Positions 519 through 44,037 of a DNA stretch of 64,000 bases are shown piece by piece. The notes under the pieces are model-generated. The model was not told the origin of the DNA. It saw only the letters and a list, made by a program, of their open reading frames with translations, and ran no database searches. The stretch spans positions 1 to 64,000 of the forward strand of contig CAYUVA010000005.1 in the NCBI GenBank assembly GCA_964448115.1. The letters are read 5' to 3'. Both the position numbers and the translations under genes were made by a program. Each line of letters begins with the position of its first letter. The first letter of the stretch is position 1. The stretch comes from an uncultured bacterium. Lineage in GTDB: Bacteria > CAYUVA01.

Positions 519-2840
519 TTATTCTTGCACCCAAAGATATGGCCAGGGAATCCCTTTGGATCCTCCTATCTTTATTGGCATCAACTCCAATGTAAATCGA
601 GCCGGTTCTACCCCTTTTGGCAGGACAACCGCTGGAAATATATAAACACCAGGGGTCGAGGGATCAGGAGTAAGCAAGATGCCGCTTGGGCTGCCCAGTA
701 TGTAGATATCTACGGAGTCTATGCCATTGCGGCTGTAGTCCTTGAGGTATGCGAACATGGTGAAGATTCCCCCTTCAGCGCTTGAGATGTTTGTGTTCAT
801 GTAGCCAGCGATATGGATAGGCAAATACTCGCTGTAGTACTCATAAGCTCCCATATCAAACCCTCCATGCTGAGGATTTGGTCGCTGATTGCCATCAAGG
901 TCATCCTGTGGCGAAGCCTCGCTAGTGGCAGTATCAATACATGGAGAATAGGCTCGCAGCCGAAAATCACCATTTGAATCCACAAAGCAGGGATCAGCAT
1001 CGATGTTTCCCTCTCCCTCCCAACCGAGCCTGATGTCGCTGTAGCTTACCTGTGCGTTGCCCGAGTAGAATGCCATCTCCACAGGCTTATTAGGATACAT
1101 TATCGTATTGGTTATCGTTGGCATAGCATTCAGCATCCCGCACAGGGCGCCGCCGGTCTCGCTCGCCTCATTCATCGCAAAGGTGCAGTTTATTATGCGT
1201 GGATTTGCAGCATAAGCGAAGATCCCTGCTCCTTTATCCGCACGATTATCGAAGAATAGAGTATTGAAAAGCTCCGCTGGCGAACTTATGAGCTGCATCC
1301 CCCCTCCATTTGCCGGGGCAATGTTACCCCTGATGATGCATTTATAAAGGCGTGGGTTTGAGTGAAAGTCGCAGCTTATGCCACCTCCATCGCGCTGGGA
1401 AGAGTTATCCTTGAACAGGCAATCGATAAAGGTCGTCGAACATCCTTCCATGGCGATGGCGCCGCCTGATTGTTCGGATTGATTGCTTACGAACTGGCAA
1501 TCAGAAATACTGCCACCGGTTCTTCTCCCCAGGAATGCGCCTCCGCCAAGAACACCCCTATTTCCAGAAAATACGCAGTTATCGAGGCTCAGATTAGAGT
1601 CATAGGCGTAGAGCCCACCTCCTTGGTAGCCATAATTATCGAAGAATCCACAGCCACTAATGGTCGGTGAGCCGTGAAGGACTCTCACACCGCTCATCCC
1701 CCCGCCGGTAATGTTTAGATTTATAAGACTATAATTGCCATCATAGGCGCTATATATTGTCGAATAAGACACATTCCCCACTATGGTTACATTCTGATCT
1801 GAGCTTATTCCTGGCATACCATTCAAGCTAACTCCATACAGGATGATGGGGAATTCCTCATCGGAGTCGATGCCATACCTGCCGGGCAGTATATCAAGGC
1901 GGCTTCCCGGCAGGTTACACTCCCTCAATGCAAGGGTGATGCTTGGAAAGTCCCCGCCATCGCCGATGGTGAATCTCACAGGTTCAGGCAACTCCACGGG
2001 ACCGAAGTAAATGCTCTCATAAGCGCCTATGTCAGGTGCGTTTCCCTGGTAGTGAGTCCCCATAACCAAGCCGCGATCGATACAGGGTGAATAGAAACCG
2101 AGGCTAAAATCCCCCGAAGCAGGATCGTTGAAACGAGGTGGTGCACCAAAGACAGAATTCAGATCTCCACTGGCTCCATTGCCGATATTACAATGGCTGA
2201 TCACCATCTCACTCCGCTCGAATGATGCATCATCGGTGTTTCCCCAGATTACAGAATTGATGATCTCGATCTTGCTATCCTCAATATATATGCCCCCGCC
2301 TCGCTCATCGCTGATATTACCAGTTATTGTGCAATGCTCGATGCGGATCCGGCTTCTCTGGGCACCGACCGCTCCTCCTTTGGCTGCATGGTTGCCGGTG
2401 ATGATGCAGCGACTGATGGTCAAGTTGGAATCGGTCAAATATATCCCGGCGCCAATATCATCGTACTGATATTTAGCTTCCCCTCCTGTAATATAAAATC
2501 CCTCGATCCGAGTGCCTCCAGCTAAGGAGAGGAGATCTCCGACTACTACCCTTTCGCTCTTTCCAGCATCGATTCTTGGTCTATAGCCTGCGTCCATGCT
2601 CTTGAGAACAACGCCGGATACAAGCTCCAATGGAAAGATCTCCCCATTCAATGAAGTATAGTTGCCATCTGCCACTAGTATCACATCGCCGAAAAAGCTA
2701 TTCTCAAGGGCTTGAGTTATCGTATTATAGTCATAGGAGCCGTTCTTGCCAACGGTTATCTGCTCTCCGCAAACATCGGAGCCGAATAGAAAAATAAGAC
2801 CTGTTATAAGACCCAATACTGATTTCAAGATCGCTTTCAT
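519..2840 (-). CDS. Secreted right-handed parallel beta-helix repeat protein with shared C-terminal domain
   Basis: Signal peptide; many GGGI/GGAI and FxxN repeats; two SPCID...D[IM]GAYE caps; ends in AGYMNTNISSAEGG...WPYLWVQE. Confidence 0.85.
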   Translation of the reverse strand: MKAILKSVLGLITGLIFLFGSDVCGEQITVGKNGSYDYNTITQALENSFFGDVILVADGNYTSLNGEIFPLELVSGVVLKSMDAGYRPRIDAGKSERVVVGDLLSLAGGTRIEGFYITGGEAKYQYDDIGAGIYLTDSNLTISRCIITGNHAAKGGAVGAQRSRIRIEHCTITGNISDERGGGIYIEDSKIEIINSVIWGNTDDASFERSEMVISHCNIGNGASGDLNSVFGAPPRFNDPASGDFSLGFYSPCIDRGLVMGTHYQGNAPDIGAYESIYFGPVELPEPVRFTIGDGGDFPSITLALRECNLPGSRLDILPGRYGIDSDEEFPIILYGVSLNGMPGISSDQNVTIVGNVSYSTIYSAYDGNYSLINLNITGGGMSGVRVLHGSPTISGCGFFDNYGYQGGGLYAYDSNLSLDNCVFSGNRGVLGGGAFLGRRTGGSISDCQFVSNQSEQSGGAIAMEGCSTTFIDCLFKDNSSQRDGGGISCDFHSNPRLYKCIIRGNIAPANGGGMQLISSPAELFNTLFFDNRADKGAGIFAYAANPRIINCTFAMNEASETGGALCGMLNAMPTITNTIMYPNKPVEMAFYSGNAQVSYSDIRLGWEGEGNIDADPCFVDSNGDFRLRAYSPCIDTATSEASPQDDLDGNQRPNPQHGGFDMGAYEYYSEYLPIHIAGYMNTNISSAEGGIFTMFAYLKDYSRNGIDSVDIYILGSPSGILLTPDPSTPGVYIFPAVVLPKGVEPARFTLELMPIKIGGSKGIPWPYLWVQE

Positions 2841-2872
2841 GCCGAACTCCTTTTCGATTGATCCAAAGCTGT

Positions 2873-2914
2873 AGTATAGTTCAGCCTGAAAATTTAGACA
2901 AATCTATGTATAAT
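2873..2914. promoter_or_regulatory. Overlapping divergent sigma70-type promoters
   Basis: Minus strand TTGTCT-N17-TATACT (2901..2873); plus strand CTGAAA-N17-TATAAT (2886-2914). Confidence 0.5.
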
Positions 2915-2960
2915 CCTAAATTGTAAAATAAAATTAAAGGTTTAAGCGCTGGATTGTGTT

Positions 2961-3515
2961 ATGAAAAAAGGGTTTGTATTGTTTTTCATCCTGACAACGG
3001 TTGTACTTTTGAAGGCAAGGGATTCCTTTTCCTTCAAGGGATGGGGCATGGGATTCAGTTTCACCTACTGGGACTCGCAGTTTAATGGTAAGAGGAACAA
3101 TGCCAACGCTTTTGCATTATATGGTATTAAGAAACCCTCGGAGAGCTTATCGCTGCGCTTCGGCATAGATTTCGCTTCTTCAAGCAGCCCTTCGGATCCT
3201 GCCATAGAAGGTGGAAGCAGCCTTCTTATCGCCAATTTTTTTGGCGGCGCTTACTATTGCTTCTACGACCTGACCATCCGCAGATGGTCGCCATACACGG
3301 GAGCATCCATAGGCTACGGCTACTTGACCTATGGAGCACAGCGTGACAAGACCACGACCTTTCGACTCACGCCGGAACTGGGTGCGATATTCAACCTGAA
3401 ACACGGCTCCTATTTTTATGTATCTGTCCAGGATCGCATCGAGTTTTCTTCCGATTCATTAAAGGGCTTTGCTTACCAGATCGGCGTTGAATGGGAAGTG
3501 AATGTTGAGCAATAG
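2961..3515 (+). CDS. Small outer-membrane beta-barrel protein (OmpA/OmpW-like)
   Basis: Signal peptide MKKGFVLFFILTTVVLL; amphipathic strands such as SPYTGASIGYGY and YQIGVEW; 184 aa. Confidence 0.7.
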   Translation: MKKGFVLFFILTTVVLLKARDSFSFKGWGMGFSFTYWDSQFNGKRNNANAFALYGIKKPSESLSLRFGIDFASSSSPSDPAIEGGSSLLIANFFGGAYYCFYDLTIRRWSPYTGASIGYGYLTYGAQRDKTTTFRLTPELGAIFNLKHGSYFYVSVQDRIEFSSDSLKGFAYQIGVEWEVNVEQ

Positions 3516-3533
3516 ATATATATCTTGCCTGGT

Positions 3534-4448
3534 TTATCGCCTCAATAGATGCCAAAGCTTACCAAGAATCTCTGCATCCAGGTATCCTTTTTTTGATGCC
3601 ATGCGCGCATAAGCGATGCTTAGCTGCTTGTACAGCTCGGCAAGCACCTTGTTTTCATCATTGACTGGGAGGTTCTCAAGTTCCTCCAGATGCATCTTGA
3701 TCGCCTCGAAGTCCCCGCGGGGAATCGGTCCGGTCAATGAGCTATCTATTTCCAGTTCCGCTATATTTTCTACTGTTTCTCTCATCAGGCTGGCGATCAT
3801 ACCAATGATGTTTCCAGGAGGCTCAAGCTCACATATCTCAAGTAGGCTTTTTGCCTGGTGAGCAAGCAAATAAGGGAAATTGGAAGCAAAGATGCAGGCA
3901 GCGTGGTACAAGGGTTTGCGCCTGCTGTCAACTCTAATCGGCTTAGCATCGATGCTAAGCACCAGCTCGCTTAAGGGCTTGATCGCCTCCTCGTCTCCCT
4001 CGATGGCAAAGTAGATGCCTGCCAGCCTCTCAGCGGATCGCAAAGGCTCCGCAAAGCTCATCATGGGATGGATAGAACCTACCAGAAATGCTGGTTCATC
4101 ATTATCGATCCTGAGTTGGCTGGAGGGAATTATGCCGGAAGTGTTTGCGATTATCATCTTGCGATCCAGTCCTTCTAGCTCGGAAAAGCAGCTAGCCCAT
4201 TCCTTATAAGCATGATCTGGAACCGAGATGATCAGTATTTCTGTGCCCTGAATAGCCTGATCTAGGCCATTAACTACCTTGATCTGGTCCAGGAAACGAG
4301 CTGCGCGATGAGCTGATTCGAGCGGCTTAGAGTAAAGGTTGACTATGATATGTCCTGCCTTCTGAAATGCAATAGCCAGCGCGCATCCTACCCTGCCGGT
4401 ACCGATAAAGGAGATCCTCCGAGGATTGCTGATTCCCTTATTAACCAT
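3534..4448 (-). CDS. Rossmann-like plus DUF2520 oxidoreductase (PanG-type ketopantoate reductase family)
   Basis: IGTGRVG, HPMMSF, YHAACIFASN and LTGPIPRGD motifs. Confidence 0.85.
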   Translation of the reverse strand: MVNKGISNPRRISFIGTGRVGCALAIAFQKAGHIIVNLYSKPLESAHRAARFLDQIKVVNGLDQAIQGTEILIISVPDHAYKEWASCFSELEGLDRKMIIANTSGIIPSSQLRIDNDEPAFLVGSIHPMMSFAEPLRSAERLAGIYFAIEGDEEAIKPLSELVLSIDAKPIRVDSRRKPLYHAACIFASNFPYLLAHQAKSLLEICELEPPGNIIGMIASLMRETVENIAELEIDSSLTGPIPRGDFEAIKMHLEELENLPVNDENKVLAELYKQLSIAYARMASKKGYLDAEILGKLWHLLRR

Positions 4449-5312
4449 TTACCCATTAAAACCTGGACGACTGTCAACCGTCTGTTCGATGCCAGGAAGG
4501 TATAGAACAATTGCCTCGGTCTTCTTGAGATAATTGCAGGCTTTACATGCTATCTCGAAAGTGGCTTGTCGATCCAGGCAGCAAACGAAGTAATAATCAT
4601 TAGGTTGCGATGGTAATCTTACGATATTAACCTCTTTTATGGTTACGGCATCGAACCTGTAACCTTCAACGGTAACCGATTCTACTCTTTGGGGGATCTT
4701 ATTACTGTGTGGAGTGATGAACAATGAAATATTTTTGCCCTTGGTGTTGTACTGAACCAACCCGACGGTTTGATGGTTGTTTCGACAACATCTTGCCCCA
4801 ATAAGTTCAACTCCCATGGCCTTGGGACATGGAATGGCTATTGGTCTTTGTATTGCCTGGCTGAGCCATTTCTCTACCTCGCTTTTCCTATTAGAGTGCA
4901 TCTGGAGCACCTTGGTGTCGTTGTATTGCAATACCATGGCTTCTAGATCGGGCACGAACTGGCGATGAACTAAAATAAAATAAGCAGGCAATAATAAGAT
5001 CAAGACAACTGTTGCTGCTATTGATATTAGGGCATTTTTATTGTTGATGAAGAATTGGATGCCCTTGCTTTGGGTTTGTTTTTGCTTGCAGCACTCCTGG
5101 TCGATCATTGAACGGATCGATTCTCTGCATGCTTCGGGGGCTTGGTCTTTTTTGACCTTGCAAATAAGCTCTTTGAACGCCCTTTGCCCGCCGTAGAATA
5201 CCTGGCAGTGATAGCAGATCTTTAGGTGTTCGACCAGGTCGAACCGTTTGTCATCTTCCAGCTCGCCGTCAAGGTACCTGAAGAGTACCCGTTTCGCTTC
5301 CCTACAGTCCAT
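4449..5312 (-). CDS. Membrane-anchored zinc-binding (zf-HC2/ZAS) anti-sigma factor
   Basis: YLDGEL...HLKICYHC (HxxxCxxC); one TM helix; directly downstream of the ECF sigma. Start placed at ATG 5312. Confidence 0.85.
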   Translation of the reverse strand: MDCREAKRVLFRYLDGELEDDKRFDLVEHLKICYHCQVFYGGQRAFKELICKVKKDQAPEACRESIRSMIDQECCKQKQTQSKGIQFFINNKNALISIAATVVLILLLPAYFILVHRQFVPDLEAMVLQYNDTKVLQMHSNRKSEVEKWLSQAIQRPIAIPCPKAMGVELIGARCCRNNHQTVGLVQYNTKGKNISLFITPHSNKIPQRVESVTVEGYRFDAVTIKEVNIVRLPSQPNDYYFVCCLDRQATFEIACKACNYLKKTEAIVLYLPGIEQTVDSRPGFNG

Positions 5313-5324
5313 AACCAATTCAGT

Positions 5325-5984
5325 TTATAGCTTCGACTTGATGTACCCGTTTTCTACTGCATAATCATATAACGCTTTCTGGAGCAATTTTCTTCCCCGA
5401 TACAGCCGAGACATGACAGTACCAATTGGGATATGGAGCATGGAGGCGATCTCCTTGTAGCTGAAGCCCTCAATATCCGATAAAATCAGCACTATCTTGA
5501 AGTCGAAAGGTAGTTCATCGATCGCCTGTTTTATCTGGTCATCAAAGATCTCGGTTGTAAGATTTGTGATCTCTTCTTCGGTAAAGGCGACCAGTTCCAC
5601 ATCTTCCACCTGTTGTTCCTGAGGTTCGATTTGTACATCGTCCTGCTGAAAGGGAGCTACATCCTCATAGGAGACCTGTTGAGGCACCTTGGATTGCTTG
5701 CGGTAGCGATTGATATAGCTATTGGTCAGGATCTTGAATATCCAAGCTTTGAAGTTGGTGCCCCGCTCAAATTTTTCAAAGAAACGAAAGGCTTTGAGGA
5801 AGGTTTCCTGGAGCAGATCCTCTGCGTCGGAGGCATTTTTGGTCATTCGCAAGGCAGTGCTATAGAGGCTATCTATATGCTCAAAGGCGAGTTTCTCGAA
5901 CAATATCCTCTTGTTATCTATATCGTTTTGAGGGCTATTGTCTTCGCTTCGTTTTCTGAAGATTTTTCTCCAGGAATCTGCCAT
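5325..5984 (-). CDS. ECF-type sigma-70 factor
   Basis: DAEDLLQETFLKAF, NFKAWIFKILTN, SYKEIA...PIGTVMSRLYRGR. Start placed at ATG 5984. Confidence 0.95.
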   Translation of the reverse strand: MADSWRKIFRKRSEDNSPQNDIDNKRILFEKLAFEHIDSLYSTALRMTKNASDAEDLLQETFLKAFRFFEKFERGTNFKAWIFKILTNSYINRYRKQSKVPQQVSYEDVAPFQQDDVQIEPQEQQVEDVELVAFTEEEITNLTTEIFDDQIKQAIDELPFDFKIVLILSDIEGFSYKEIASMLHIPIGTVMSRLYRGRKLLQKALYDYAVENGYIKSKL

Positions 5985-6096
5985 GATTATTAGATTATAA
6001 AGGTTCAACCTAGATCTTTACAGGTATTTGATGATACCATACAATCAAGGTCATATCCAGAATTAAATATATCCGGTATCACGCGATTAGCTCTTC

Positions 6097-6125
6097 CTTT
6101 GTGCCTTTGTGGCTTAGTGGTTAAA
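6097..6125. repeat. Inverted copy of the repeat at 31-59
   Basis: Reverse complement reads TTTAACCACTAAGCCACAAAGGCACAAAG. Confidence 0.7.
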
Positions 6126-6174
6126 TGACTATTAAGTCTTTGGATACACCTTTTTTAGTAATATCAAAATCGGT

Positions 6175-6203
6175 TTGACTTTGACTTAACATGTTATTAT
6201 ACT
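6175..6203 (+). promoter_or_regulatory. sigma70-type promoter for the oxidoreductase operon
   Basis: TTGACT-N17-TATACT; the spacer contains the palindrome TAACATGTTA. Confidence 0.65.
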
Positions 6204-6318
6204 TATTTAGGAAGAATGATAAAAAGTCATTATTTTACAGGCAGTTGTCCCAGATAAGCTCTTTTAGAGATTCGTCCCATAGAAACAAGTTACCTATCAT
6301 CCAAAGGAACGCAAAAAA

Positions 6319-6867: not shown

Positions 6868-6883
6868 AAACGAGGTTTATTGT

Positions 6884-28180: not shown

Positions 28181-28253
<73 letters not shown>

Positions 28254-29275: not shown

Positions 29276-29385
29276 TGTTATGATCGATATTATCAGAAGG
29301 AGTTTGGCTAAACAAATGACATGCTAATGCTGGTATGGTAGAGTTTTTATTTAGTTATCCACTCTTGGTCAAAGGATTAGTAAAC

Positions 29386-32145
29386 ATGAATATTAAAAAG
29401 ATCTTGCTGCTTGTGAGCATTCTATTCTCCTATGTTTGGGCTTTGTCATCGATGCAAGTTATTGAACTTAACGCTGAGCCGTGGCATCCGGAGATAGATC
29501 ATTATCCGCGCCTTATATACACCTCGCAGATGTACGCCAAGATCGTCTCCCGGTTGAATAAATATCCATATTCAGAGCTTTATGCGCATATTCTAGCTCG
29601 TTCCGCCTCCACTCCCAGTTACGATCACTCGCAATACTTCCCCGCCCAGGAATATAACAACGCCCAGATAGCTAAATGCTGCGCATTTGTGGCGGCAGTG
29701 GAACAGGAGCAAGCGATGGCTGACAAGGCAATAGAGATCCTGGAGAACCTCAATGACGATGTTCATGATCTCCCCTTGCAGGAGTTGGCTTCTGATGTCC
29801 ATATTGCCGAGGCTGTTCAAGGTTACTGCCAGGCGTATGATATCCTGCGCGGGCACGGGTTCATCGATGAAAACAGCCTTTGCCATACCAGGTTGACTAG
29901 CCTGTCCAGCGATTTCTACCAGTTCTTCGCCATTGACTACCGCCTGATCTACCAGACCATGTACAACAATCATAGAACCAAGTCAGCCTCTGCCATCGGC
30001 ACCAGTGGGATCACCTTGAACCAGCACCCGGAGGCGAGCCACTGGGTCGATTTTGCCATGATCAACCTCAACGACATCCTTATGAACGACCTGTCATCCC
30101 CTGATGGATGCTATGCAGAGGGGGGTTACTACTACCAGTACAGCGCAGTCAACCATATCCCTTTTATCATCGCCTTGAGAAACGCCATCGGCGATGCCTC
30201 TGGCTGGTATAATCGTATGATCTTCGATCTTTTCGGCAACATCGAGTATGTACCCGAATATATCGGGGATTTCATTACTAATCCCAGGTTATGGCATCTT
30301 GAGGCGTTCAATATCAAGGTGCGAATGCCAGATGGAAACGGTCCGCCCATCGATGATGCCAACCTGCATTGGTACCCTGGAGCTTCGAGCGATTTCATCT
30401 TTAACCATGGCATCTTCAATTGGCACTGGTTAAACCATCAAGCAGGATTGCAGTATGTCCATTGCACGGATCTGGCAGTCGATTTCATTTGCCATTACGA
30501 TTGTAACCTGACCGCGCTTGAGCCTACTTGGCAACCATCACTAGCCCTGAAAGATGGCGGCAAGGCGGTATTTCGTGATAGCTGGGCACCTGGTGGATTA
30601 TACTTTCTGCTCAATGCAGAACATGGCAACCTGCGCGAGGCTGGCGCCATGCACGAACACCCGGATAATCTCTCCTTTATAGCCTGCCGTGGAGATGAGA
30701 TGATGGCAATAGACAGCGGATACATAAGGTGGGAGGAGCACGACCTGGTGCGCCATGCGAAAAACCATAACACAATATTGATCAACGGGACAGGTCCCCC
30801 TTCTGCTACCTACCTTTCGCCCGCTGATTATGATGCATATATCGAGGAGTTCTTCACCATGGATAACCTCGACTATGCACGAGCCAGCCAGGAGCGCCCT
30901 CGGGCGACCATCAACCGACTGGTACTATTCCCCATGCACAGCTACTTTTCGGTGGTCGATTTCATTGAAAGTACGGATGTTCAAACCTATACATGGCTGC
31001 TGCACGGCAATGGCGGAGGAGACAGCGGCGGCAGCTTTGAGATGCTAGAACAGGGGGGAAGATGGACACTGAATGACTCGAAAATGGAGAGCTTCATTGA
31101 TACCACAGCCGGAAAGCCATCAATGAGCCATCACGAGGACTGGCACGGGTTTGTCTGGGGACAGGCAAAGAAGCACCAGGTCACCCAGGCTGATATAGAT
31201 GATGATGACATCGCTGCCTTGCAGTTTCTGTTCTTGGGGGACTTAAACCATAGTTCTCCAACTCTCACACAACTCCCAGTTCAACCTGGGAATATATTAT
31301 ATCGCTTGGACAATACAACCTTTACTCATTATTATCATCTACAGACAAAATATGGGAGCGCATCCATCGACCTTAATGGCACGCAAGTACGCCATGATGG
31401 CAGGATGCTATTTATCGGGAAAAAAGATCCGCTTTGGTATTTTCAGCACCAGGCAAGCGAAATTCTCATCAATGATCAGAGGTATTACGCCAGCGACAGC
31501 GTAGTAAGCCTGTATTGTAATTATGATATGAATCGGGTGCACCTTTTCGCCAGTCTGCCGTGTGCGGGCAGCCTTGTGATTTATACCGCATTCGAGCCAG
31601 AGAGCATAAGTGGCGAAAATGTAACCTCCTGGGAATATCTGCCTGGTGATTTCACAAGCATAACCCTGAGCGGCGAATCAGAGGTGGAGATACTTCTCTC
31701 CGAGCGCACCCATCCGCCCACACCTACGCCAACCGCAACCAACCCGCCGACAATAACCCCCACTCCGACCTGCACGGGATATCAAACCTCAACACCCACG
31801 CTTACAGCAACAGCCACCCCCTATCCTCGATTGTTCATACTGGTAGCCGGATACATGGACACCGAGATCTCAAGTATGCATGGCGGAAGATTATCAATGC
31901 TTGCTGTTGTCGGTGGGGATGAAGAGGTTAACCATCTGCAAGTGGAACTGACCTATAATGGAGTGGGCAGCGGTGTTTACTTGATGCTCGCCGATGAACA
32001 AGCGGGCGTTTTTATATTGCCATCAATCTCAATCCAGCCTGGTTTGCCAGCGGAGATATTCCTCCTCGGCTTGGAGGCGACATTGATCACCCAGCCTGCG
32101 GTGCCAGCTACCTGGCCTTTTCTTTATTGTGCGGAGGCTTTGTAG
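29386..32145 (+). CDS. Secreted heparinase II/III-like polysaccharide lyase with Thr/Pro linker and shared C-terminal domain
   Basis: Signal peptide; NNH, DGCYAEGGYY, PPIDD, HEHPDNLSF, IDSGY, HNTILING; PTPTPT linker; AGYMDTEISSMHGG...WPFL. Start placed at ATG 29386. Confidence 0.85.
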   Translation: MNIKKILLLVSILFSYVWALSSMQVIELNAEPWHPEIDHYPRLIYTSQMYAKIVSRLNKYPYSELYAHILARSASTPSYDHSQYFPAQEYNNAQIAKCCAFVAAVEQEQAMADKAIEILENLNDDVHDLPLQELASDVHIAEAVQGYCQAYDILRGHGFIDENSLCHTRLTSLSSDFYQFFAIDYRLIYQTMYNNHRTKSASAIGTSGITLNQHPEASHWVDFAMINLNDILMNDLSSPDGCYAEGGYYYQYSAVNHIPFIIALRNAIGDASGWYNRMIFDLFGNIEYVPEYIGDFITNPRLWHLEAFNIKVRMPDGNGPPIDDANLHWYPGASSDFIFNHGIFNWHWLNHQAGLQYVHCTDLAVDFICHYDCNLTALEPTWQPSLALKDGGKAVFRDSWAPGGLYFLLNAEHGNLREAGAMHEHPDNLSFIACRGDEMMAIDSGYIRWEEHDLVRHAKNHNTILINGTGPPSATYLSPADYDAYIEEFFTMDNLDYARASQERPRATINRLVLFPMHSYFSVVDFIESTDVQTYTWLLHGNGGGDSGGSFEMLEQGGRWTLNDSKMESFIDTTAGKPSMSHHEDWHGFVWGQAKKHQVTQADIDDDDIAALQFLFLGDLNHSSPTLTQLPVQPGNILYRLDNTTFTHYYHLQTKYGSASIDLNGTQVRHDGRMLFIGKKDPLWYFQHQASEILINDQRYYASDSVVSLYCNYDMNRVHLFASLPCAGSLVIYTAFEPESISGENVTSWEYLPGDFTSITLSGESEVEILLSERTHPPTPTPTATNPPTITPTPTCTGYQTSTPTLTATATPYPRLFILVAGYMDTEISSMHGGRLSMLAVVGGDEEVNHLQVELTYNGVGSGVYLMLADEQAGVFILPSISIQPGLPAEIFLLGLEATLITQPAVPATWPFLYCAEAL

Positions 32146-32648: not shown

Positions 32649-32859
32649 CTGCTATTGAGTAATTCCTTAATTCTATTAGCATATTGATCAGCAATACTCA
32701 ATGTCTATGATGTGATGATCGTTTTTTTTAAGAAATTTCGTTGCTCTTGTTATGAGCAAATATATAGGATGCACCTAAGATCATACATACTTGTCCTTGT
32801 TAGCCTAGTAATTTTCAGTGTAAAATGATCCATTGATTTACGCATATTCCGACAAAAAT

Positions 32860-35088
32860 ATGTCGAAAAGATCAGCATACTTGATAGTTGCGAGTTCATT
32901 GCTTCTCCTTTACCTGCTGAACTCTCCTGGGTACATAGTCCTGGTTCCGGGCATATCATTTCTCTTTGTTGTCAAGCGTGGTTATCGACTATTGGATGCT
33001 ATTGCGATAGTCTTAAATAGCTCGGTTGCCTTCTGGACAGTATCATTTTATCTGCTTGGTGTTATTGGAATTGGCTTAAGCTGGGGGCATTCGGTTGCAG
33101 TCCTGTTTACAATAGCTGTACTCATCTATTATGCATTGAGGTCAAGTGCTGCAAGCTCATGGCTTGATAAACCAAATCGCTGGCAGATTATTCAATTGAT
33201 AATACTTGTTTTTATAATTTATATTTTATTTCTTCCCCTTTCCACAGCTCTTACCCTTCCTGGGGACCTAAGCATGAACGCATACCTGGCAAGGCTGATA
33301 GTTGAGCATGATGGCGCCTTTGATAGCTTTGAGCCGATCTGGAATCTGGATAAACCCTGTGGATATCCCATGGGGCTGCACAGCCTGGCTGCTCTTTTGA
33401 CTATGGCTAGCGACGGTGTTGTGCCTATATACCGCTCTGCCGCTTATGCGACGGTACTGGGTTATATATTTTTAATTGTGAATCTTTCGCTGCTATTGTG
33501 CCTGATGGTGCCAGGAATCTGGGCGATGGTGATCTCTGTAACTGTTTTGTTCGCTGCTGGTCATCCGCTTGCATTCGTAAGGTACGGAGCACATGGCAAT
33601 ATATTCGCTTATGCTCTTGCTTTGTATGCAATCCATTGGCTTTATTCTTTTAGGCTATCCGGTCGAGGATTATGTAACCATGTAATGATCGGCAGCCTGA
33701 TGATTTCATCGGTTCCCCTCATGCACACACAGCCGGCGGTGCTAATGCTGTACCTGTCTTTTTTGCTAGTTCCAGTTTATCTTGTTGTTCATCGATACTT
33801 TGGAGTGATGCGAGCCGCACTGGTTGGCGGACTGTTATTATTAATTTCTGCTATATTGCTAAGTCCGTACCTGGCAATTGCCGATTTGAAGGTGAGCGAT
33901 ATTGAAATGCTGGAGGTGGTCAAGTGGCACCAGGATCATGGTTTGCTCCTGCATGAAGGCTTTTTGGAGAACCTGAAGGGACTGGTCGAATATTTGAGGT
34001 CTTTTTTATCGCCATCTATCTTGATTTTGGGCTTGATCGGCTTGATAGCAGGTATATTCTTTCATCGCAAATGCGCTGTAGTCGGCTTAGTATTGTCTTT
34101 TTTGGTATTGCTTTTGTTGATCAATTCGAGCTATTGGTTGCTTCCCTTATCGTTCTCATTGCTGCCGGACAGGCTGCTTGTAGCTCTCGTCATCGCTATT
34201 GCCATACTTTGTTGCGGTTTTTATGCACTTTTTTCAGGGCTTTGCCAAGGTTTGCCTAAAGCGATAAAAATTCCATTGATAGCGCTATTATGCCTTTTGT
34301 TGTTTGCATATTCTTTTATCGGCTACAAGCGGGATTATTATGAGCTTATACAACGATATACTGTATTAACTCCGCCTGATCTGAAGGCGATGGAGTGGAT
34401 CGCTGAAAATACACATCCAGGAGATCTCTTTATCAATAATATCTACGATGCTGGGCTATGGATACCTGCGATGGCGATGCGACCTATAACCGAGCCAGCA
34501 ACCAACATAATATTTTATCAGGATCTGCTCGACTCTATGATCGGGCAAGAACCGCGTTACTTGTACATCGGCGCCAAGATCATCAATCAGCATCGGGTTT
34601 ACACGGACAAGGTAGTTAGTAGATACCCGGTGGATCCTTTCACTAATCCGCCAATATGCCACAGGTTGGTTTATCGCAATAATGGCGTTTCTATATACCG
34701 GCTTGGTCCCTGCGCAGAGGTGCTTGAGGACAAAGAAACGCTCGATATCAACGATATACAGCTTACAGTATTAGCTCCCTTGGATAATGCTTTCCTGGCT
34801 CCCGGCTTGGAGTTCACCTGGGAAGCCACCAATCTCAATTTCTTCAACCTTCAGTTCTCCTATCATCCAAGCTTCTCGGCTTCAACTATTATATTTGAGA
34901 CCTATCCCTTCGACGAGGTGAGGCTGGGGAGATATAAGCTACCGCCGTTGGGTCTGGGATCTTTCAAAGGGCGGGATATTGGCGGTGAGCTAGCCATCTA
35001 TTGGCGAGTGCTCGGTGTAGGGCTAGCCGATGGAGCGCCGATTAGTCCTGCGATCTCCAGCCAGCCGGGAATATTGCGCATCAGGTGA
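32860..35088 (+). CDS. Polytopic membrane protein, probable GT-C-fold glycosyltransferase, with extracytoplasmic C-terminal domain
   Basis: More than 10 TM helices; YPMGLHSLAA loop; DLKAMEWIAENT...DAGLWIP pattern; C-terminal FTWE...YWRV (FN3-like). Confidence 0.65.
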   Translation: MSKRSAYLIVASSLLLLYLLNSPGYIVLVPGISFLFVVKRGYRLLDAIAIVLNSSVAFWTVSFYLLGVIGIGLSWGHSVAVLFTIAVLIYYALRSSAASSWLDKPNRWQIIQLIILVFIIYILFLPLSTALTLPGDLSMNAYLARLIVEHDGAFDSFEPIWNLDKPCGYPMGLHSLAALLTMASDGVVPIYRSAAYATVLGYIFLIVNLSLLLCLMVPGIWAMVISVTVLFAAGHPLAFVRYGAHGNIFAYALALYAIHWLYSFRLSGRGLCNHVMIGSLMISSVPLMHTQPAVLMLYLSFLLVPVYLVVHRYFGVMRAALVGGLLLLISAILLSPYLAIADLKVSDIEMLEVVKWHQDHGLLLHEGFLENLKGLVEYLRSFLSPSILILGLIGLIAGIFFHRKCAVVGLVLSFLVLLLLINSSYWLLPLSFSLLPDRLLVALVIAIAILCCGFYALFSGLCQGLPKAIKIPLIALLCLLLFAYSFIGYKRDYYELIQRYTVLTPPDLKAMEWIAENTHPGDLFINNIYDAGLWIPAMAMRPITEPATNIIFYQDLLDSMIGQEPRYLYIGAKIINQHRVYTDKVVSRYPVDPFTNPPICHRLVYRNNGVSIYRLGPCAEVLEDKETLDINDIQLTVLAPLDNAFLAPGLEFTWEATNLNFFNLQFSYHPSFSASTIIFETYPFDEVRLGRYKLPPLGLGSFKGRDIGGELAIYWRVLGVGLADGAPISPAISSQPGILRIR

Positions 35089-36259: not shown

Positions 36260-36450
36260 GATCCGATCCTCCTTATCATGGATCGTCTGGAGAATAGGGA
36301 TGTCAGCGCGCTTAAGCCTGTAAAGGGGGCGTGGATTCACTTGGCATCCTTATAAGTAGGTGGGTGGATTCTTGAAGAAACAAATATTAACCGAACCGAG
36401 ACAAAGCTCGAAGGCTTCCCAGCCGGCAGCGGGTAGCATACCTCGGTATA
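36260..36450. ncRNA. Candidate structured RNA, family not identified
   Basis: Several nested stems in a roughly 400-bp intergenic gap (see findings). Confidence 0.3.
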
Positions 36451-36551
36451 GCAAAATCAATACAAGTACTATGAATGAGGCGAACCGTAAGTTTTCCTTG
36501 ACAGAAGAGTTGTATAGGTATTGCTGGGGAGATCTTAATCAATTCAAGGTT

Positions 36552-37487: not shown

Positions 37488-38454
37488 CGAAAGTAATATA
37501 GTTTCGGTTCGTAAATACTATGGCAAAAGGCTCGTTGAACTTGCTGATGTGCATGATGATATAGTCGGGGTGAGCGCCGATCTGGCTGAATCGACTGGAA
37601 TCGGTCAGCTTGGGGACAAACACCCGCATAGGATGTTTAATGTCGGTATCTCTGAGCAGGACATGGTGGGAGTAGCCGCTGGACTTGCCTTGATGGGTAA
37701 ATCGGTCTGGGTGAGCACCTTTGCCATCTTCGCCACCGGCAGATGTTGGGATCAGATAAGACAATCTATCTGCTATTCCAACCTGCCAGTAAAGATAGTT
37801 GCCAGCCACGGAGGGATCTCCGTGGGACAGGATGGACCAACCCACCAAGCGAGCGAGGATATAGCACTGATGCGGGTGATGCCCCGCATGAATATCATCA
37901 TACCCTGCGACTGGATCGAGATGCGCCATATCATGGACTTCATTTACCATGAGCTAAAAGAGCCGGTCTATGTGCGAACAGCCAGGATACTCTATCCGAC
38001 TATACACCAGGATAAGGGCTATCAATTTAACTTCGGACAAGCTGAGGTTCTTGGTCGGGGCAAGGATATAACCATCATAGCTTGTGGGTATATGGTTACC
38101 AAGGCGATCCTGGCAGCAAACCGACTCATAGCCGAGGGTTATGAGCCGACGGTGCTCAATATGCACACCATAAAGCCTATCGACTACAATGCCATAAAGG
38201 AATTCGCCGACCAGGAGAATAATCGCAGCCGAACCATCATCGTTGCCGAGGAGCACTCCGTAATAGGCGGATTGGGCAGCGCTGTCGCAGAGGTGCTTGC
38301 CGAGGAATGCTGCAATAATATAAAATTGATACGAATCGGGCTGAAGGAGCCATTTGCGGAATCCGGCGAGCCGGAGAAACTGCTTGATAAATATAAGATG
38401 TCGTCTGATCATATTTATGAGAAAGCAAAGGAGGTTCTTATAAAACTTAGATGA
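37468..38454 (+). CDS. Transketolase C-terminal subunit
   Basis: NVGISEQ, DGPTHQ and EEHSVIGGLG motifs. Confidence 0.93.
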   Translation: MKPIFIDESNIVSVRKYYGKRLVELADVHDDIVGVSADLAESTGIGQLGDKHPHRMFNVGISEQDMVGVAAGLALMGKSVWVSTFAIFATGRCWDQIRQSICYSNLPVKIVASHGGISVGQDGPTHQASEDIALMRVMPRMNIIIPCDWIEMRHIMDFIYHELKEPVYVRTARILYPTIHQDKGYQFNFGQAEVLGRGKDITIIACGYMVTKAILAANRLIAEGYEPTVLNMHTIKPIDYNAIKEFADQENNRSRTIIVAEEHSVIGGLGSAVAEVLAEECCNNIKLIRIGLKEPFAESGEPEKLLDKYKMSSDHIYEKAKEVLIKLR

Positions 38455-39677
38455 GAGAAAGTAGAACATTTTTTAAGCTATCATTGGCTCTATTGATCGT
38501 ATTGGTGCTCTTTGGAACAAGCATGGTCTTGGTGCTAGCTTCCGGGAATTCGAGCTACGAGCACCTGCAACTACTCATGGAGATCCGTTCTTATGTGGAG
38601 GATAAATATGTCCAAAAGGTGGATCTTGAGCGCATGGATGCCGGGACGCTTACCGGGTTGGTCGTTTATACCGATAGATATAATTGTATCTATGATTACA
38701 ATCAACCTCTCTATCCTGTCGGACTAGATGGGCGCTTGGGGTTCATCTTTGGCGCCAAGGAAGGCGCTATAACCGTAGTTTCGACCATTGAAGGCTCTCC
38801 TGCCCGAAAGGCTGGATTGAGTAGCGGCGATATAGTGCTTTCCATCGGGAAGACCGAAACCTATCGGCTCAGCGTAATGGAGGCGCAGAGGCTCGACTAT
38901 GGGAGCATCGATGACCTGGTCAAGGTTTCGGTAAGGAAACAAGGGGATGATGCCTTCAAGGACCTGAACCTGGTCTTTCAGAGGCTGACAGGGCTACCAC
39001 CAATCGAGGGCGAGATGCTTCCATCGAGTATAGCCCTGGTGAAGGTTCGCAGCCTGAGCCACCCAAATATCATACAAGAAACTGCACAGATGCTGAAATC
39101 ATTAGAGGATAAGGCTTCTGGATTGATCCTGGATCTGCGCTATACAGCCGATGGGAGTATCGACAAGGGTGTGGCGCTGGCTGATATCCTCATCGCCGAT
39201 GGCATCGAACTTGGCTATCTCAAGGGAAAAGAGGACGCCAATCTACGCAGTTACTTATCCAGAGACCACCTTTGTTGTTTCAAGGAAAAGCCGGTTAAGG
39301 TGCTGATAAACAACTCCACTGCTATGGGAGCCGAGGTGGCAGCAGCCATTCTCCAAGAGATAGGCAACTTCGAGACCGTGGGAATTCATACTTTTGGCAT
39401 GGCTTATGAGTCAAAGACATTCGATATCGACCACATCAAGAAATTGAGGTTACTGGTCGCCACTTTCAATACCCCTTCAGGAACCGATATCCACCTCAAT
39501 GGGGTCAAGGCGGATCAGGGGGTGGAAGCCGGCACCATTATTGCGGTTGATAGTGAACCTAAGCCCGAACAGCCTGCATCCAAGATAATAGAGATCCTCA
39601 CCGGAAAGGCAAAAGCAGCTGATAAGCAGCTTAAGAAGGCAGAAGAGCTGATACTGAATGATCTCGAAGCCAGGTAG
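38451..39677 (+). CDS. S41/CtpA-like PDZ protein, catalytic dyad apparently lost
   Basis: PDZ segment GSPARKAGLSSGD; LILDLR; TAMGAE in place of SASASE and TFGMA in place of TFGKG. Confidence 0.8.
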   Translation: MRESRTFFKLSLALLIVLVLFGTSMVLVLASGNSSYEHLQLLMEIRSYVEDKYVQKVDLERMDAGTLTGLVVYTDRYNCIYDYNQPLYPVGLDGRLGFIFGAKEGAITVVSTIEGSPARKAGLSSGDIVLSIGKTETYRLSVMEAQRLDYGSIDDLVKVSVRKQGDDAFKDLNLVFQRLTGLPPIEGEMLPSSIALVKVRSLSHPNIIQETAQMLKSLEDKASGLILDLRYTADGSIDKGVALADILIADGIELGYLKGKEDANLRSYLSRDHLCCFKEKPVKVLINNSTAMGAEVAAAILQEIGNFETVGIHTFGMAYESKTFDIDHIKKLRLLVATFNTPSGTDIHLNGVKADQGVEAGTIIAVDSEPKPEQPASKIIEILTGKAKAADKQLKKAEELILNDLEAR

Positions 39678-40610
39678 ATGGCTGCGAAAAGGAAATCCAC
39701 ATCCCGCAGAAGCTCTGCGAAAAAGAGCCAGTCAAGAAATATTACTTCGATCGTCCTTCGTGGATTCGCCATAATACTTGTCCTATTATTGGCTGCTGTT
39801 TATGTCGTGCATCGAACTACCACTCCATCTGAGCTGAGAAGAAAGCTGGAGAAGGCAAAACGAGTAGCAAAGCAATACCTGCCACCCCAAGAACAAGAGC
39901 CGATCACTAAGCCCGAACATTCTCCCAGGTTTATGCAACCACAAGCGCCTAAAATAGCGATCGTAATCGATGATTTCGGCAACTCGATCTCCATAGCCCA
40001 AAGCTTCTTTACCCTGGAGTACCCGATAGGCATCTCGATTCTTCCCTTCACACCTTATGCAAGCCAGATAGCCCGCCAGGCAAAAAGCGAGGGATTCGCG
40101 GTCTTACTCCACCTTCCCATGGAGCCGAAGGGCTATCCAAAGGTCGATCCCGGCAGGGGTGCGCTGCTATTGGAAGATTCATCATCGACCATTTTGAAAA
40201 AAATAAACGACGCTATCGATTCTCTTGGAGTGATGCCAGATGGGGTCAATCATCACATGGGTTCGGCTTTTACAGCCAACGCCACTCAGATGTCGATGGC
40301 ACTAAATTATATCGGCAACAAGGGTCTTTTTTATCTTGACAGCCTAACCTCATCCGACTCGGTGGCTTATAGCCTGGCATTGGGAGCGGGTATCAGGACC
40401 GCGAAGCGTGATGTGTTTTTAGATAATAGCAGCGATCCCGAATATATCGAACAACAGGTATGGGCTTTATGTGAAAAGGCAGAAGAACACGGATCAGCAA
40501 TCGGTATCGGTCATGCACGAAAGAATACCTTCCAGGTGCTGGATACAATGCTGCCCGAGGTCGAGCGCCGCGGCTACCTGGTGGTCGATGTAAGAGAGCT
40601 GCTCAATTAG
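39678..40610 (+). CDS. Divergent polysaccharide deacetylase (YibQ/DUF610 family)
   Basis: IAIVIDDFG, LHLPMEP, NHHMGS, RDVFLD and AIGIGH motifs. Confidence 0.92.
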   Translation: MAAKRKSTSRRSSAKKSQSRNITSIVLRGFAIILVLLLAAVYVVHRTTTPSELRRKLEKAKRVAKQYLPPQEQEPITKPEHSPRFMQPQAPKIAIVIDDFGNSISIAQSFFTLEYPIGISILPFTPYASQIARQAKSEGFAVLLHLPMEPKGYPKVDPGRGALLLEDSSSTILKKINDAIDSLGVMPDGVNHHMGSAFTANATQMSMALNYIGNKGLFYLDSLTSSDSVAYSLALGAGIRTAKRDVFLDNSSDPEYIEQQVWALCEKAEEHGSAIGIGHARKNTFQVLDTMLPEVERRGYLVVDVRELLN

Positions 40611-40623
40611 CCTCGCCTTGAAT

Positions 40624-43600
40624 TCATCTGGGATCTGGTTCCTGCGGAACATCCAGGTAGGGCCATAGGAAGCTCTCCAGTCCCTCGTCATCTATTGCAT
40701 ATAGATCGATCTGCCAGTGGTTTGGCTCGACGCCAGCTCCGACAAAGATATCGTGCATCCACCAGAATCCGACCGTCTCATCGTATGGTAGGTCACCCAC
40801 ATACATCCCCTGGTAGTACATCTCGACTCTATCCACCACGCCGTCTGGGTCATCGCCATAAGCCATGAGGAAGAACCAACCGCCATCCGTGGAAGTAATA
40901 TAAGTGGTCATGTATCCACCAACCAGGAGCCTTGGTCTCATGCCAGGAGTTGCTGTGGGGGTATCGGTTGCTGTAGGTGTGGCAGTCGGTGTCTCACTCG
41001 GTGTATGAGTCGGCTCTTGGGTAGGCGTATCTGTCGGCGATCCTGTAGGTATCTGCGTAGGAGTCGCGGTATCGGTTGCTGTAGGTACAAGAGTCGGTGT
41101 CCTGGTTGCGGTCTCGGTGGGAAGAGATGTCGGGGTAGCTGTCGGCGTCAAGGTCGGTGTTACTGTTGGCAGTAGTGTTTCAGTTGCTGTAGGGGTGGTG
41201 GTGTTAGTTACTGTCGGGGTATTACTCGGCGTGGCAGTCGGCTCTATTATCTTGAATGAGTAAATCTCTGTATCCATTACATTGCCATAGTTATCAGCAG
41301 CATCGAGGCTTACTTTGATCCAATCTCCATAAGCAAAGTCGCCCGGCGGATTATAAAATACCCTGATATCATCCTGCATGCCGCTAAGTGTCGGTGTTAC
41401 GGCAAATCCCTCGACAGCCATCAGCAAGGTGGCTACATCAACACCGCTTCCGTCATCGTATATGTGCAGGCTGATATTGGTATCCGGCAGATTACCCACC
41501 GAGTTAGGCGCTGGTGAATGCAAGCCTGTATAGGGCGGATCGGTCTCCGGTTCTATGGGCATGATGCGGAATGAATACTCATCATATACGAAATTGCCAG
41601 CCATATCCTCGGCATAAAGCTGAACATTAACCATAAGGTTCAGATCAAAGGGAGTCGATGGCTGGTGAGTGATCATATAATCATACATATTTCCTAGCCG
41701 GGTGAAGCTCACAGCCGCCCCTTCGACCATCATGACGATAGAGGTCGAATCGACACCGCTGTCATCATCGGCAACATGGAGGCTTATCGAGGTGTTGGGA
41801 TGTACATCCCTGGCGTTCTTGGCTGGATTGTGTCCATAGGTATAAGGTGGAATCGGATCCGGCGGTATGTAGATGGTGAACTGATACTCATCGCTAGCGA
41901 TATTCCCCATCATGTCCGCCGCTGTTACCTGTACATCGACCACCTCTCCATAATTGAACCTGACCGGCGGGTTATAGAATAGCATGTAATCATGTATATC
42001 GCCGCTGATCATAGCCGTGGTAACCAGGGATGATCTCACCCATAACTGGATGGAGCTTTGATCTACCCCAGATTCATCATCCAGGATATGCAGGCTTATA
42101 TTCGTATCGGCAGGCACATCGGTCTCGTTTTTGGCTGGATCGAAGTTGTCGAAGTATGGCGGGATCATATCCGCAGTGGAGGTACAGGTAGCGGTCGGAG
42201 TGCTGCTTGGCTGTTGGGTAGGCGTTTCAGTGGGAGTATTGGTGGGAGTGAAACTCGCCATGCCGGTCGCGGTGCCGGTTGGAGGCAGGGTCGGCGTTGA
42301 GGTTGGTTGATCTGTCGGTGTTTGGGTTGGGGTCCGGGTAGAGGTTGAGGTCGGAATACCGGTAGGCGTGTTTGAAGGTGTGCTGGTAGGTATGTCTGTG
42401 GGCGAGTTTGTCGGTGTTAATGTAGGCATCAGCGTTGCGGTAGCTGTATCGGTTGGAGTACCGGTCGGCTCCTGGGTAGGAGTAATTGTAGGCGTGTTGG
42501 AGGGAGTGAAGGTCAACATGCCGGTCGCGGTTCCGGTTGGTGTTTGAGTTGGTGTACCAGTAGGCAGGCTGGTGGCAGTACTCGTCGCCGTGCTGGTTGG
42601 AAGATCGGTGGCTGTGCTGGTCGGGGTCAGGGTAGCTGTGCTAGTCGGCTGTAGCGTAGCTGTGCTGGTCGCCGTGCTGGTCGGTGCATCGGTTGATGTA
42701 CTGGTCGGGGTCAGGGTCGGCGTGTTGCTGGGAAGCTGCGTTGCCGTATTGGTCGGCGTATTGGTCGAGGTAGATGTCGGCAGATCGGTATGGGTCGCCG
42801 TGGGGGTTGAGGTTGATGTACTAGTAGGCGCTGCGGTTGCGGTTTGGGTTGGACTGGCGGTTGGCGCTAAGGTCGGTGTGCTGGTGGAAGTCATGGTGGG
42901 GGTGGCACTGGCGGTTGCAGTAGGCGTGGCGGTACATTGCTCGGTGAAATAGACATAATCATCCGTAACCGAGTAGCCATTCAGGTTCTTTGCATAGACC
43001 GAGACCTCTATTCGATTATCGCAGGGCAGAGGGGGGCTTGGTAAATACGCTAGATTATAATCCCAAGGATCGCCACCGATCGCTGGAGTTACATCCTTGT
43101 CCTCTACCTGCATGGCGATCGAATTCAGATCGACTCCGGCTCCATCATCCCTAATGTGTAGCTTTATGGTGTAATCGACCGGCACATCGGTTTGATTCTT
43201 CGCCGGGTCATGATCGGTGGTATATGGTATTGCTGGCGTGTTGGTTGGCGTAGGAGACGGAGTAAATGTAGGGGCGCCGGTGGGAGTCGATGTCGGCGTG
43301 GGGGTCGCAGTTGCCATCAGGGTGGTAAATGTCCAGAGCTCCGGCGCCATCTCATTCCCCTCGTAGTCCTCTGCCCAGACCTCTATCCACACCACCTCGT
43401 TATAATCGAAGTTTTCCGTAGGGTTATAGAACGCAACTACATCATTCACCGTGGAGCCAGATAGCTGCGGGGATACATAATCGCCCTTGATCCACATATT
43501 TACCCGGCTGGGATCAACGCCACTGTCATCATCCCTAATATGGAAGCTGATATTAGTATCGATCTCCACCCCACTTTGATTGGGGGCTGGTGTATGATCG

Positions 43601-44037
43601 GTTATATAAGGGGGATCAAAGTCAAAAGAGGTCGGGGTCGGTGTTGGGGTGGGAGCACTTACTATAGTAAAGCTATATATGTCCGAAGGCATCGAGTTGC
43701 CTAGCAGATCAGAGGCATCGACCTGGACAGCAACCCTGTCGCCATAAGGATAGTCTTGAATGTGAAAATAGACCAGTTGATAATCCGCTGGCGATCCATT
43801 TATGCGCAGTGTACCTGAGGCTGGCTGGTACTCGATCATCATCGCTATGCTGTTAAGATCGACTCCAGAACCATCATCCTTTACATGCAGGGTGATATTG
43901 ACATCCGGAGCAACATTCGCCTGGTTATAGGCTGGATTATGCCCTTCAGTATAGGGAATTGCCCAAGCATTTCCCATATTGGCAACTATTAATAGCATAA
44001 TGAATGCGAACAGAGATAAACAAGGCTTGTATTTCAT
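40624..44037 (-). CDS. Large secreted surface protein: six Ig-like repeats, long Thr/Pro linkers, shared C-terminal domain
   Basis: Signal peptide ending AWA; six PY...PA.N...I.[LF]H[IV].DD..GVD repeats; TPT-rich tracts; [14 protein letters not shown]...WPYL. Start placed at ATG 44037. Confidence 0.88.

Follow-up and report, generated by a model that had tools for sequence, protein, structure and literature searches.

What is the purpose of a protein ending that recurs on secreted proteins with otherwise different bodies? The question is raised by the first 64,000 nucleotides of contig CAYUVA010000005.1 from an uncultured bacterium (this whole stretch is called the window here; it is part of contig C5 of the assembly), in which three open reading frames (ORFs) encode secreted proteins that end in the same domain of about 105 residues, called the tail below. 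The favored reading, to which a probability of roughly 0.45 is given, is that the tail is a lineage-specific, Ig-like, linker-tethered terminal targeting module, by which exported proteins would be docked or retained at the cell surface. This and all other functional statements on the tail are inferred. The three proteins, P1 to P3, and their parts are as follows.

519..2840, minus strand: P1, a 773-aa secreted beta-helix protein with a signal peptide, DUF1565/NosD/PMP repeats (Pfam, NCBIfam), a choice-of-anchor Q domain, and the tail
837..968, minus strand: choice-of-anchor Q domain of P1, aa 625-668 (NF041518, 43.8 bits, cut-off 25)
522..836, minus strand: tail domain of P1, aa 669-773 (alignment; hidden Markov model [HMM] envelope runs to the last residue; AlphaFold2 [AF2] pLDDT 86.4)
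519-521, minus strand: stop codon of P1 (ORF)
29335..32145, plus strand: P2, a 936-aa secreted heparinase II/III-like protein (Hepar_II_III_C, 36.5 bits)
31693..31812, plus strand: Pro/Thr-rich linker upstream of the P2 tail (sequence)
31813..32142, plus strand: tail domain of P2 (alignment, HMM, shuffle control)
40624..44073, minus strand: P3, a 1149-aa secreted protein with Ig-like repeats and very long Pro/Thr linkers (ORF)
40951..41250, minus strand, approximate limits: Pro/Thr-rich linker upstream of the P3 tail (sequence)
40627..40950, minus strand: tail domain of P3 (alignment, HMM, shuffle control)
40624-40626, minus strand: stop codon of P3 (ORF)

All three ORFs were found with the tail sequences quoted in the initial annotation. 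The last 105-110 residues of the proteins align at 30-33% identity with 18 invariant columns, and the pairwise BLASTP E values among the tails are 3e-12, 6e-14, and 5e-8. As a control, five column-shuffled versions of the three-tail HMM were run on the source genome and matched 0 ORFs, against 153 for the real HMM, so that the claim of an alignable tail on unrelated proteins holds. The Thr/Pro linker reported upstream of two of the three tails was seen in P2 and P3; in P1, the choice-of-anchor Q domain abuts the tail directly instead. It is also true of the sequences of P1, P2, and P3 that none has a terminal transmembrane (TM) helix or basic tail. The true start of P2 is likely an internal Met at about 29386, immediately upstream of the hydrophobic signal peptide. 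For P3, neither Pfam nor NCBIfam gave a match, even at E 1. Its body (40951-44000, minus strand) has about eight Ig-like units of about 100 aa, each opening P.Y..(D/H).PA.N...V and set apart by Pro/Thr-rich stretches, one of them of about 300 residues.

The tail family and its cargo

The source genome (labeled G000) is an assembly of 3.98 Mb in 86 contigs with 48% GC and 94% completeness; it is the sole genome of its phylum in the species set compared, and crude gene calling gave a total of about 3047 genes. The tail HMM was seeded with the three window tails and then iterated over the stop-to-stop ORFs of this genome. The search returned 202 tail copies in 164 ORFs, about 5% of genes, three of which lie in the window; the expectation of many more copies elsewhere in the genome was thereby confirmed. 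One copy is present in 128 ORFs, two in 35, and four in a single ORF. In an all-against-all comparison of C-terminal 110-residue segments, the tail formed the largest similarity cluster of the genome, with 141 members (the next has 49).

The strict C-terminal position proposed earlier was borne out for most proteins. The last tail copy lies within 5 residues of the stop in 142 of the 164 ORFs and within 20 residues in 144, but the tail is N-terminal in 6 proteins and otherwise followed by sequence in 14, 35 proteins are doubles, and a stand-alone form exists. The 20 proteins with more than 20 residues beyond their last tail copy were sorted into five groups. In six, an N-terminal tail stands just after the signal peptide and is followed by a Pro/Thr linker and an enzyme body (e.g., GH31); in five, a spacer of 45-146 aa with a second motif at its end follows the tail; in seven, the tail is followed by more domains (PKD and others); one has a C-terminal hydrophobic helix, and one is interrupted by an assembly gap. 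The double-tail protein encoded at C1:74032-76482 (minus strand) has 72 further residues that end in a hydrophobic helix and basic residues; no other tail protein was seen to end like a membrane anchor. Six proteins of the source genome share the short ending NP.P..GA..V.PN(P/D/Q)-stop, with downstream stops in all frames; the ending follows a tail by 45-146 residues in five of them and may be a second, short C-terminal signal.

Genes of the proteins with this short ending: C1:76593-78362, C16:63840-66224, C25:34138-37005, C29:36664-38775, C53:14181-17882, C61:14106-15869

Median pairwise identity of the tail copies is 33% (maximum 82%), and the copies of this genome are old paralogues. Their consensus is P.I.laGYmdT.l.s..GG.l..lA.v.Dp.g...i..VEiyy.G.pTGi.L.ddg..gD...gdg.y.....i.pG..pg.yLLEl.A.D..g..S..WPYL.v.. 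followed by the stop. Many copies contain an acidic Asp/Gly-rich loop that could bind calcium. The internal first copies of the doubles retain the WPYL motif, and terminal and internal copies are intermixed on a tree; labels change 47 times on it, compared with 60-67 times in the ten shuffles shown.

Export signals were scored by two sequence heuristics. The strict heuristic (charged n-region, hydrophobic h-region, no later TM segment) was passed by 141 of 160 cargo genes, in keeping with the suggested co-occurrence with Sec signals, and by 258 of the 1612 remaining proteins of 300 aa or more. The lenient one was passed by 148 of 154 cargo ORFs vs 759 of 1716 long background ORFs; the six cargo ORFs without any signal resemble fragments. 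The tail is borne by 139 of the 397 proteins (35%) of at least 300 aa that are predicted to be soluble and secreted. A Pro/Thr linker, defined as P+T of at least 50% in the 30 aa upstream of the tail, precedes 78 of 141 C-terminal tails vs 10 of 5000 background windows.

For the cargo bodies, a random 40 of the 164 tail ORFs were scanned, with contig-end ORFs, the three window proteins, and one ORF of more than 2000 aa excluded. A Pfam family was found at E 1e-6 in 26 and none in 14. The peptidases were C25 (2), S8 (3), C14, and M14; the other enzymes were a GDSL lipase, an endonuclease/exonuclease/phosphatase, an AhpC/TSA thioredoxin-like protein, a GHL10 plus amidase_2 protein, an FGE-sulfatase, and a DMFA2-like protein. 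Repeat and binding cargo comprised beta-helix proteins, FG-GAP, kelch and PQQ-type propellers, and F5/8 type C. The view that the tail is added to very diverse exported cargo was thus confirmed in this sample. All six Peptidase_C25 (gingipain-family) genes of the source genome end in the tail; three of their proteins were scanned with the PorU sortase model and scored 42-90 bits against a cut-off of 420.

C25 genes that end in the tail: C32:15468-19247, C19:39716-43477, C35:36719-41653, C31:19382-22774, C7:12628-16293, C31:26717-30655

Taxonomic range, stand-alone form, and predicted fold

A profile of 23 tails was searched against 1.84 billion representative proteins and matched 850 at E ≤ 1e-3, 536 at 1e-10, and 151 at 1e-30. 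The tail HMM confirmed 148 of the best 150 of these 850 representatives, and in 116 of the 148 the domain reaches to 5 aa or less from the C-terminus; 26 of the best 150 belong to the source genome. The best 150 are nearly all double-tail proteins, scores being additive. The two of the 150 that were not confirmed, of 7609 aa and 3311 aa (40 and 13 stretches), were rejected as members, since their scores are sums of weak repeat matches of at most 8 bits each. A panel of the source genome and 40 other genomes, kin to it at domain level only, was also searched, and among the 40 the tail was found in G022 only. In the phylum of G022 (the second phylum below), the count was 4-48 matches per genome (E 1e-8) in the 11 genomes, out of 14, that have the tail. 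The expected lineage restriction is therefore seen on both scales, 850 of 1.84 billion representatives in the first and a one-genome phylum plus 11 of 14 genomes of one other phylum in the second.

A stand-alone form, made of a signal peptide, about 60 unconserved residues, and one near-consensus tail, is conserved in the second phylum.

Stand-alone tail gene of the source genome: C4:99847-100407 (L022:7848-8408), with an AhpC/TSA gene directly after it
Orthologues of the stand-alone tail gene: L023:7688-8287, L024:7995-8663, L026:7491-8129, L027:7712-8266, L028:7532-8125

Its neighborhood is similar and of housekeeping type in four of five second-phylum loci, with synteny of Mfd, FabF, and SelA, plus ATP-grasp-like and GT-C-like membrane genes. 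As a source of partner genes this neighborhood was rejected: the synteny is conserved, but the genes are housekeeping genes together with the ATP-grasp-like and GT-C-like ones. GT-C-like genes flank the second-phylum stand-alone gene at L024:10442-12190 and L025:4579-6786. In the window, the P2 gene is adjoined by a gene for a 751-aa polytopic membrane protein (32833..35088, plus strand) that has no Pfam match and the look of a GT-C-type glycosyltransferase. The GT-C-like genes by P2 and by the stand-alone gene gave rise to the idea that the tails or their Pro/Thr linkers might be glycosylated.

The structure prediction and Foldseek comparison called for earlier were run on two tails. The AF2 models of the P1 tail (23 sequences; pLDDT 86.4, pTM 0.78) and of the canonical stand-alone tail (28 sequences; pLDDT 89.9, pTM 0.82) are both seven-strand Ig-like sandwiches. 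Foldseek of both models against PDB gave nothing below E 0.003. A full VIA-align scan of the two models gave best Z values of 7.9 and 7.3 in a flat list of Ig and FnIII domains, among them LILRB4, a xanthanase module, the chitinase A1 FnIII domain, CbhA Fn3-like modules, and the Ig-like domain of PPAD; by the method's own calibration, this level of Z for the predicted models would indicate a common fold only. A profile search of PDB sequences with the tail returned a single chance match (E 0.34). What was gained is thus an Ig-like fold class with generic Ig/FnIII neighbors only. The conserved GYM, GG, VE.YY, LLEL, and WPYL map to predicted strands and turns.

Docking, export, or a passive module

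If the tail is a docking or retention module, cargo would cross the inner membrane by Sec, as the signal-peptide sequence heuristic suggests, and could pass the outer membrane by a type II-like route, which is available given six secretin genes. About one in three of the large soluble secreted proteins bear the tail, which would then take them all to the same place in the cell envelope. There it would dock non-covalently on a shared surface receptor or envelope polymer, as dockerin, SLH, and cell-surface-binding modules do, and doubling in tandem would make the binding more avid. That the tails serve as a common address or means of attachment is the most economical account of their terminal position, the linker upstream, the wide range of cargo, the fraction of the secretome that bears them, and the equivalence of the slot with that of known modules (see the last section). 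Docking is preferred over an export signal because the tail also occurs N-terminally, in tandem, and alone, and because internal copies keep the motifs and intermix with terminal copies on the tree. N-terminal copies, doubles, the quadruple, and the stand-alone form, which are typical of binding modules, favor such a module over a translocation signal.

Several points weigh against docking. No receptor, scaffold, or partner gene was identified by neighborhood or by C25/FadL co-occurrence. The cargo genes are scattered over the source genome as 141 singletons, 8 pairs, and 1 triple, and no neighbor family was significantly enriched within 2 positions of them among the many families tested (best p values, uncorrected: 6e-4, 0.006, and 0.01). 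A ResA/TlpA-like thioredoxin and a peptidoglycan amidase are among the cargo; such proteins usually act in the periplasm, and cargo may thus be bound for somewhere other than the outer surface. With only 4-48 matches per genome, the tail cannot be a general tag in the second phylum. The predicted structure resembles generic Ig/FnIII modules only, including passive FnIII-like glycosidase spacers, and the conserved residues may mark the fold, not a binding surface. Of the lineage-specific secretion or attachment domain proposed in the initial annotation, what stands is one homologous, narrowly distributed domain on diverse exported cargo; a partner gene did not emerge.

The partner candidates were rejected one after the other. 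Among neighbors, a secreted repeat-protein family (6 of 8 near cargo, p 6e-4) and Wzx-like flippases (4 of 6, p 0.01) were unconvincing after multiple testing, class I tRNA synthetases (3 of 3) were taken as coincidence, and FadL-type barrels, the family to which PorV belongs, were near cargo in 3 of 9 cases (p 0.2). Among co-occurring genes, C25 peptidases are present in all 14 second-phylum genomes, including 3 tail-less ones, and in 15 of the 41 panel genomes, and FadL/PorV-like barrels number 1-5 per second-phylum genome irrespective of tail presence. The anticipated co-occurrence of an outer-membrane or protease gene failed here, as C25 and FadL-type barrel counts do not follow the tail. 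Replacement of the tail by a type IX secretion system (T9SS) within the second phylum was rejected as well, with 12 of 14 genomes lacking a TIGR04183 match. The other two genomes, 69% and 78% complete, have 10 and 1 matches, which are suspected to be contamination. In the source genome, 38 signal-peptide proteins end in F, W, or Y, and 19 ORFs were scanned as outer-membrane candidates; these were TonB-dependent receptors, FadL-type barrels, a TraF_2 protein, non-barrel proteins, and four without a family.

A possible but less probable explanation is that the tail is an outer-membrane export signal, an analogue of the C-terminal domain (CTD) of the T9SS, with its own translocon in diderms that lack T9SS, and is perhaps removed or modified later. 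For this comparison, searches for SprA, TIGR04183, and PorV were rerun on G000 and G022 and on three control genomes with T9SS-like protein ends (G035, G011, and G028). The controls gave 412-625 bits for SprA, 104 to at least 150 TIGR04183 matches per genome, and 6-21 PorV-family matches per genome. SprA and TIGR04183 had 0 matches in G000 and G022, and PorV gave one 16.8-bit fragment at E 0.006 and 0 matches at E 0.001 in G000 and 0 in G022; at 94% completeness of G000, the absence of T9SS genes is not proven by these counts. No tails were found in the three T9SS-bearing controls, so that no genome of the five has both tags: T9SS only in G035, G011, and G028, and the tail only in G000 and G022. 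The size class, the Ig-like fold class, and the extreme C-terminal position of the tail match the T9SS CTD, and copy numbers are similar (150-202 here vs 104 to at least 150 TIGR04183 matches in the three T9SS genomes). In the same direction point the C25 genes, all six of which bear the tail in the source genome, and four homologues of the P1 body with a T9SS CTD in the slot of the P1 tail. The source genome is that of a diderm; Omp85-family genes number 4, secretins 6, and FadL-type barrels 10, the last being the highest count in the 41-genome panel. An export signal is not what six N-terminal copies, 35 tandem doubles, and the stand-alone form would lead one to expect. Terminal copies bear no specific mark, internal ones keeping WPYL and mixing with them on the tree (47 vs 60-67); no translocon candidate co-occurs, the C25 and FadL counts being independent of the tail in the second phylum; and the three tail-less genomes of that phylum have no T9SS tails either. 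It is somewhat doubtful that, in diderm candidate phyla where T9SS was not detected, the tail addresses cargo to an undescribed outer-membrane pathway of export and attachment, a functional counterpart of T9SS with a translocon or receptor of its own. In such a pathway, the conserved Thr/Ser of GYMDT and S..WPYL might also be modified by the many GT-C membrane glycosyltransferases that these genomes encode.

A purely structural role for the tail is unlikely; in this reading it would be a passive module of Ig-like type (a spacer, an aid to folding, or a pro-domain that can be removed), spread by domain shuffling and devoid of address function. Such a module would fit the generic character of the best structural neighbors, which include the Ig-like domain of PPAD (5ak7, Z 7.0-7.1) and FnIII-like modules of chitinase and CbhA. 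It would also fit the fact that some second-phylum copies start about 10 nt or less from a C25 catalytic domain and belong to ORFs (1017-1100 aa) that must run on past them, as well as the choice-of-anchor X loop found elsewhere in internal Ig-like domains, where three of nine proteins end in T9SS CTD-like domains. One would not, however, expect a passive module to close 142 of 164 ORFs with the stop 0-5 residues on, to sit outside a flexible Pro/Thr linker rather than between domains, or to occur on about 35% of the large predicted secretome with unrelated folds, and it leaves the conserved stand-alone secreted form unexplained. A substrate-binding module like a carbohydrate-binding module (CBM), keeping enzymes on a polymeric food source, is very improbable: many CBMs are terminal beta-sandwiches tethered by Pro/Thr linkers, and the VIA-align list has polysaccharidase beta-sandwich modules and a CBM entry (2c4x, Z 6.5), but no single substrate suits peptidases, a lipase, a nuclease/phosphatase, thioredoxin-like proteins, and adhesin-like repeat cargo.

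Type IX secretion, sortases, exosortases, and cellulosomes are recognized in genomes through a terminal tag on diverse exported proteins. Here, one uncatalogued domain is found on about 5% of genes, and on roughly every third protein of the large predicted secretome, of a genome in which the known tag-reading systems were not detected. An address-tag role would imply a partner (receptor, scaffold, or translocon) and supply a simple sequence rule for predicting the surface and secreted proteome in these uncultured lineages. Even if it is merely a docking module, the tail HMM would annotate several hundred "hypothetical" protein ends.

Comparison with known systems

The three window tails alone had no Pfam or NCBIfam match at E ≤ 10, and a literature search of limited coverage returned no description of the domain. 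The NCBIfam model NF041940 (choice-of-anchor X; 37 positions, 25-bit cut-off) matches the loop "L.DDG..GD..AGDG.Y" within the tail; it was above the cut-off in 8 of the 40 sampled cargo proteins and just below it in 4 more. At E ≤ 0.001, it had 59 matches in the source genome, most above the cut-off, and 0-8 in each of the 40 other genomes. The earlier statement that the tail matches no known family therefore stands in that no Pfam or NCBIfam model covers the whole tail, and fails for the loop, which NF041940 overlaps in some copies. This model spans about a third of the tail, only in copies that have the loop. Nine proteins encoded by other genomes have choice-of-anchor X inside internal Ig-like domains, to which the tail HMM gives at most 9.9 bits. 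Three of these nine end in T9SS CTD-like domains, whereas the tails of the source genome mostly end the protein. By sequence, the tail is a family distinct from choice-of-anchor X, and the loop motif that it shares with a broader Ig-like set perhaps reflects distant ancestry.

No separate anchor was found downstream of the tail; the stop comes 0-5 aa later, with no TM helix or basic tail. In the source genome, sortase searches gave 0 matches, SLH gave one weak match (23.8 bits) and none in tail sequence, and exosortase gave one partial exosortase-like ORF (43.5 bits). A regular-expression scan of the tail-protein ends gave no convincing PEP-CTERM, LPXTG, or tripartite signal. The tail is thus not a T9SS CTD, dockerin, SLH, or PEP-CTERM domain in sequence, as had been stated.

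The type A T9SS CTD (TIGR04183/PF18962 Por_Secre_tail) resembles the tail in several ways: it is an Ig-like beta-sandwich of about 70-100 aa, it stands at the very C-terminus of signal-peptide proteins whose bodies vary widely (C25 and S8 peptidases are among them), it is present in more than 100 copies per genome, and it occupies the same slot in homologues of the P1 body. The tail differs in having no sequence match to it, in occurring N-terminally, in tandem, and alone too, and in belonging to genomes (G000 and G022) where SprA, PorV, and TIGR04183 were not detected. The top 50 structural rows for the tail models hold generic matches (Z up to 7.9) and no T9SS CTD entry, which by itself would speak neither for nor against a fold in common with solved CTDs.

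The type I dockerin (PF00404) is likewise a terminal module, mostly C-terminal and occasionally N-terminal, that stands behind linkers on unrelated secreted enzymes. The dockerin fold is helical and EF-hand-like, whereas the tail is predicted to be all-beta and Ig-like and has no Pfam match at E ≤ 10. No cohesin-like partner emerged from the neighborhood analysis of the source genome, in which no cohesin family search was made.

The Ig-like domain of PPAD (PDB 5ak7, residues ~356-460) has a similar fold, with Z 7.0-7.1 and a root-mean-square deviation of 3.2-3.7 over 90-93 residues, a Z no higher than that of unrelated Ig/FnIII domains. As in gingipains and PPAD, second-phylum tail copies sometimes stand directly behind the catalytic domain, there of C25 type. 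In PPAD and gingipains, the Ig-like domain precedes a separate T9SS CTD, whereas in the source genome the tail is the last domain.

A comparison of position comes from P1. Its body has 812 homologues at E 1e-10, of which the best 120 were examined for terminal modules. Among these 120, Por_Secre_tail was found in 4, always within 7 residues of the C-terminus, and type I dockerin in 7; five of these dockerins lie no more than 8 residues from the C-terminus, a sixth stops 45 residues short of it, and the seventh is N-terminal. A passage of bioRxiv 10.1101/2023.03.06.531300 applies the term "choice-of-anchor" to surface proteins with alternative anchors and describes the choice-of-anchor A domain itself as not the anchor. 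The T9SS CTD and dockerin in these homologues, together with the choice-of-anchor Q domain in P1, show that the tail fills the slot of a secretion or docking module.

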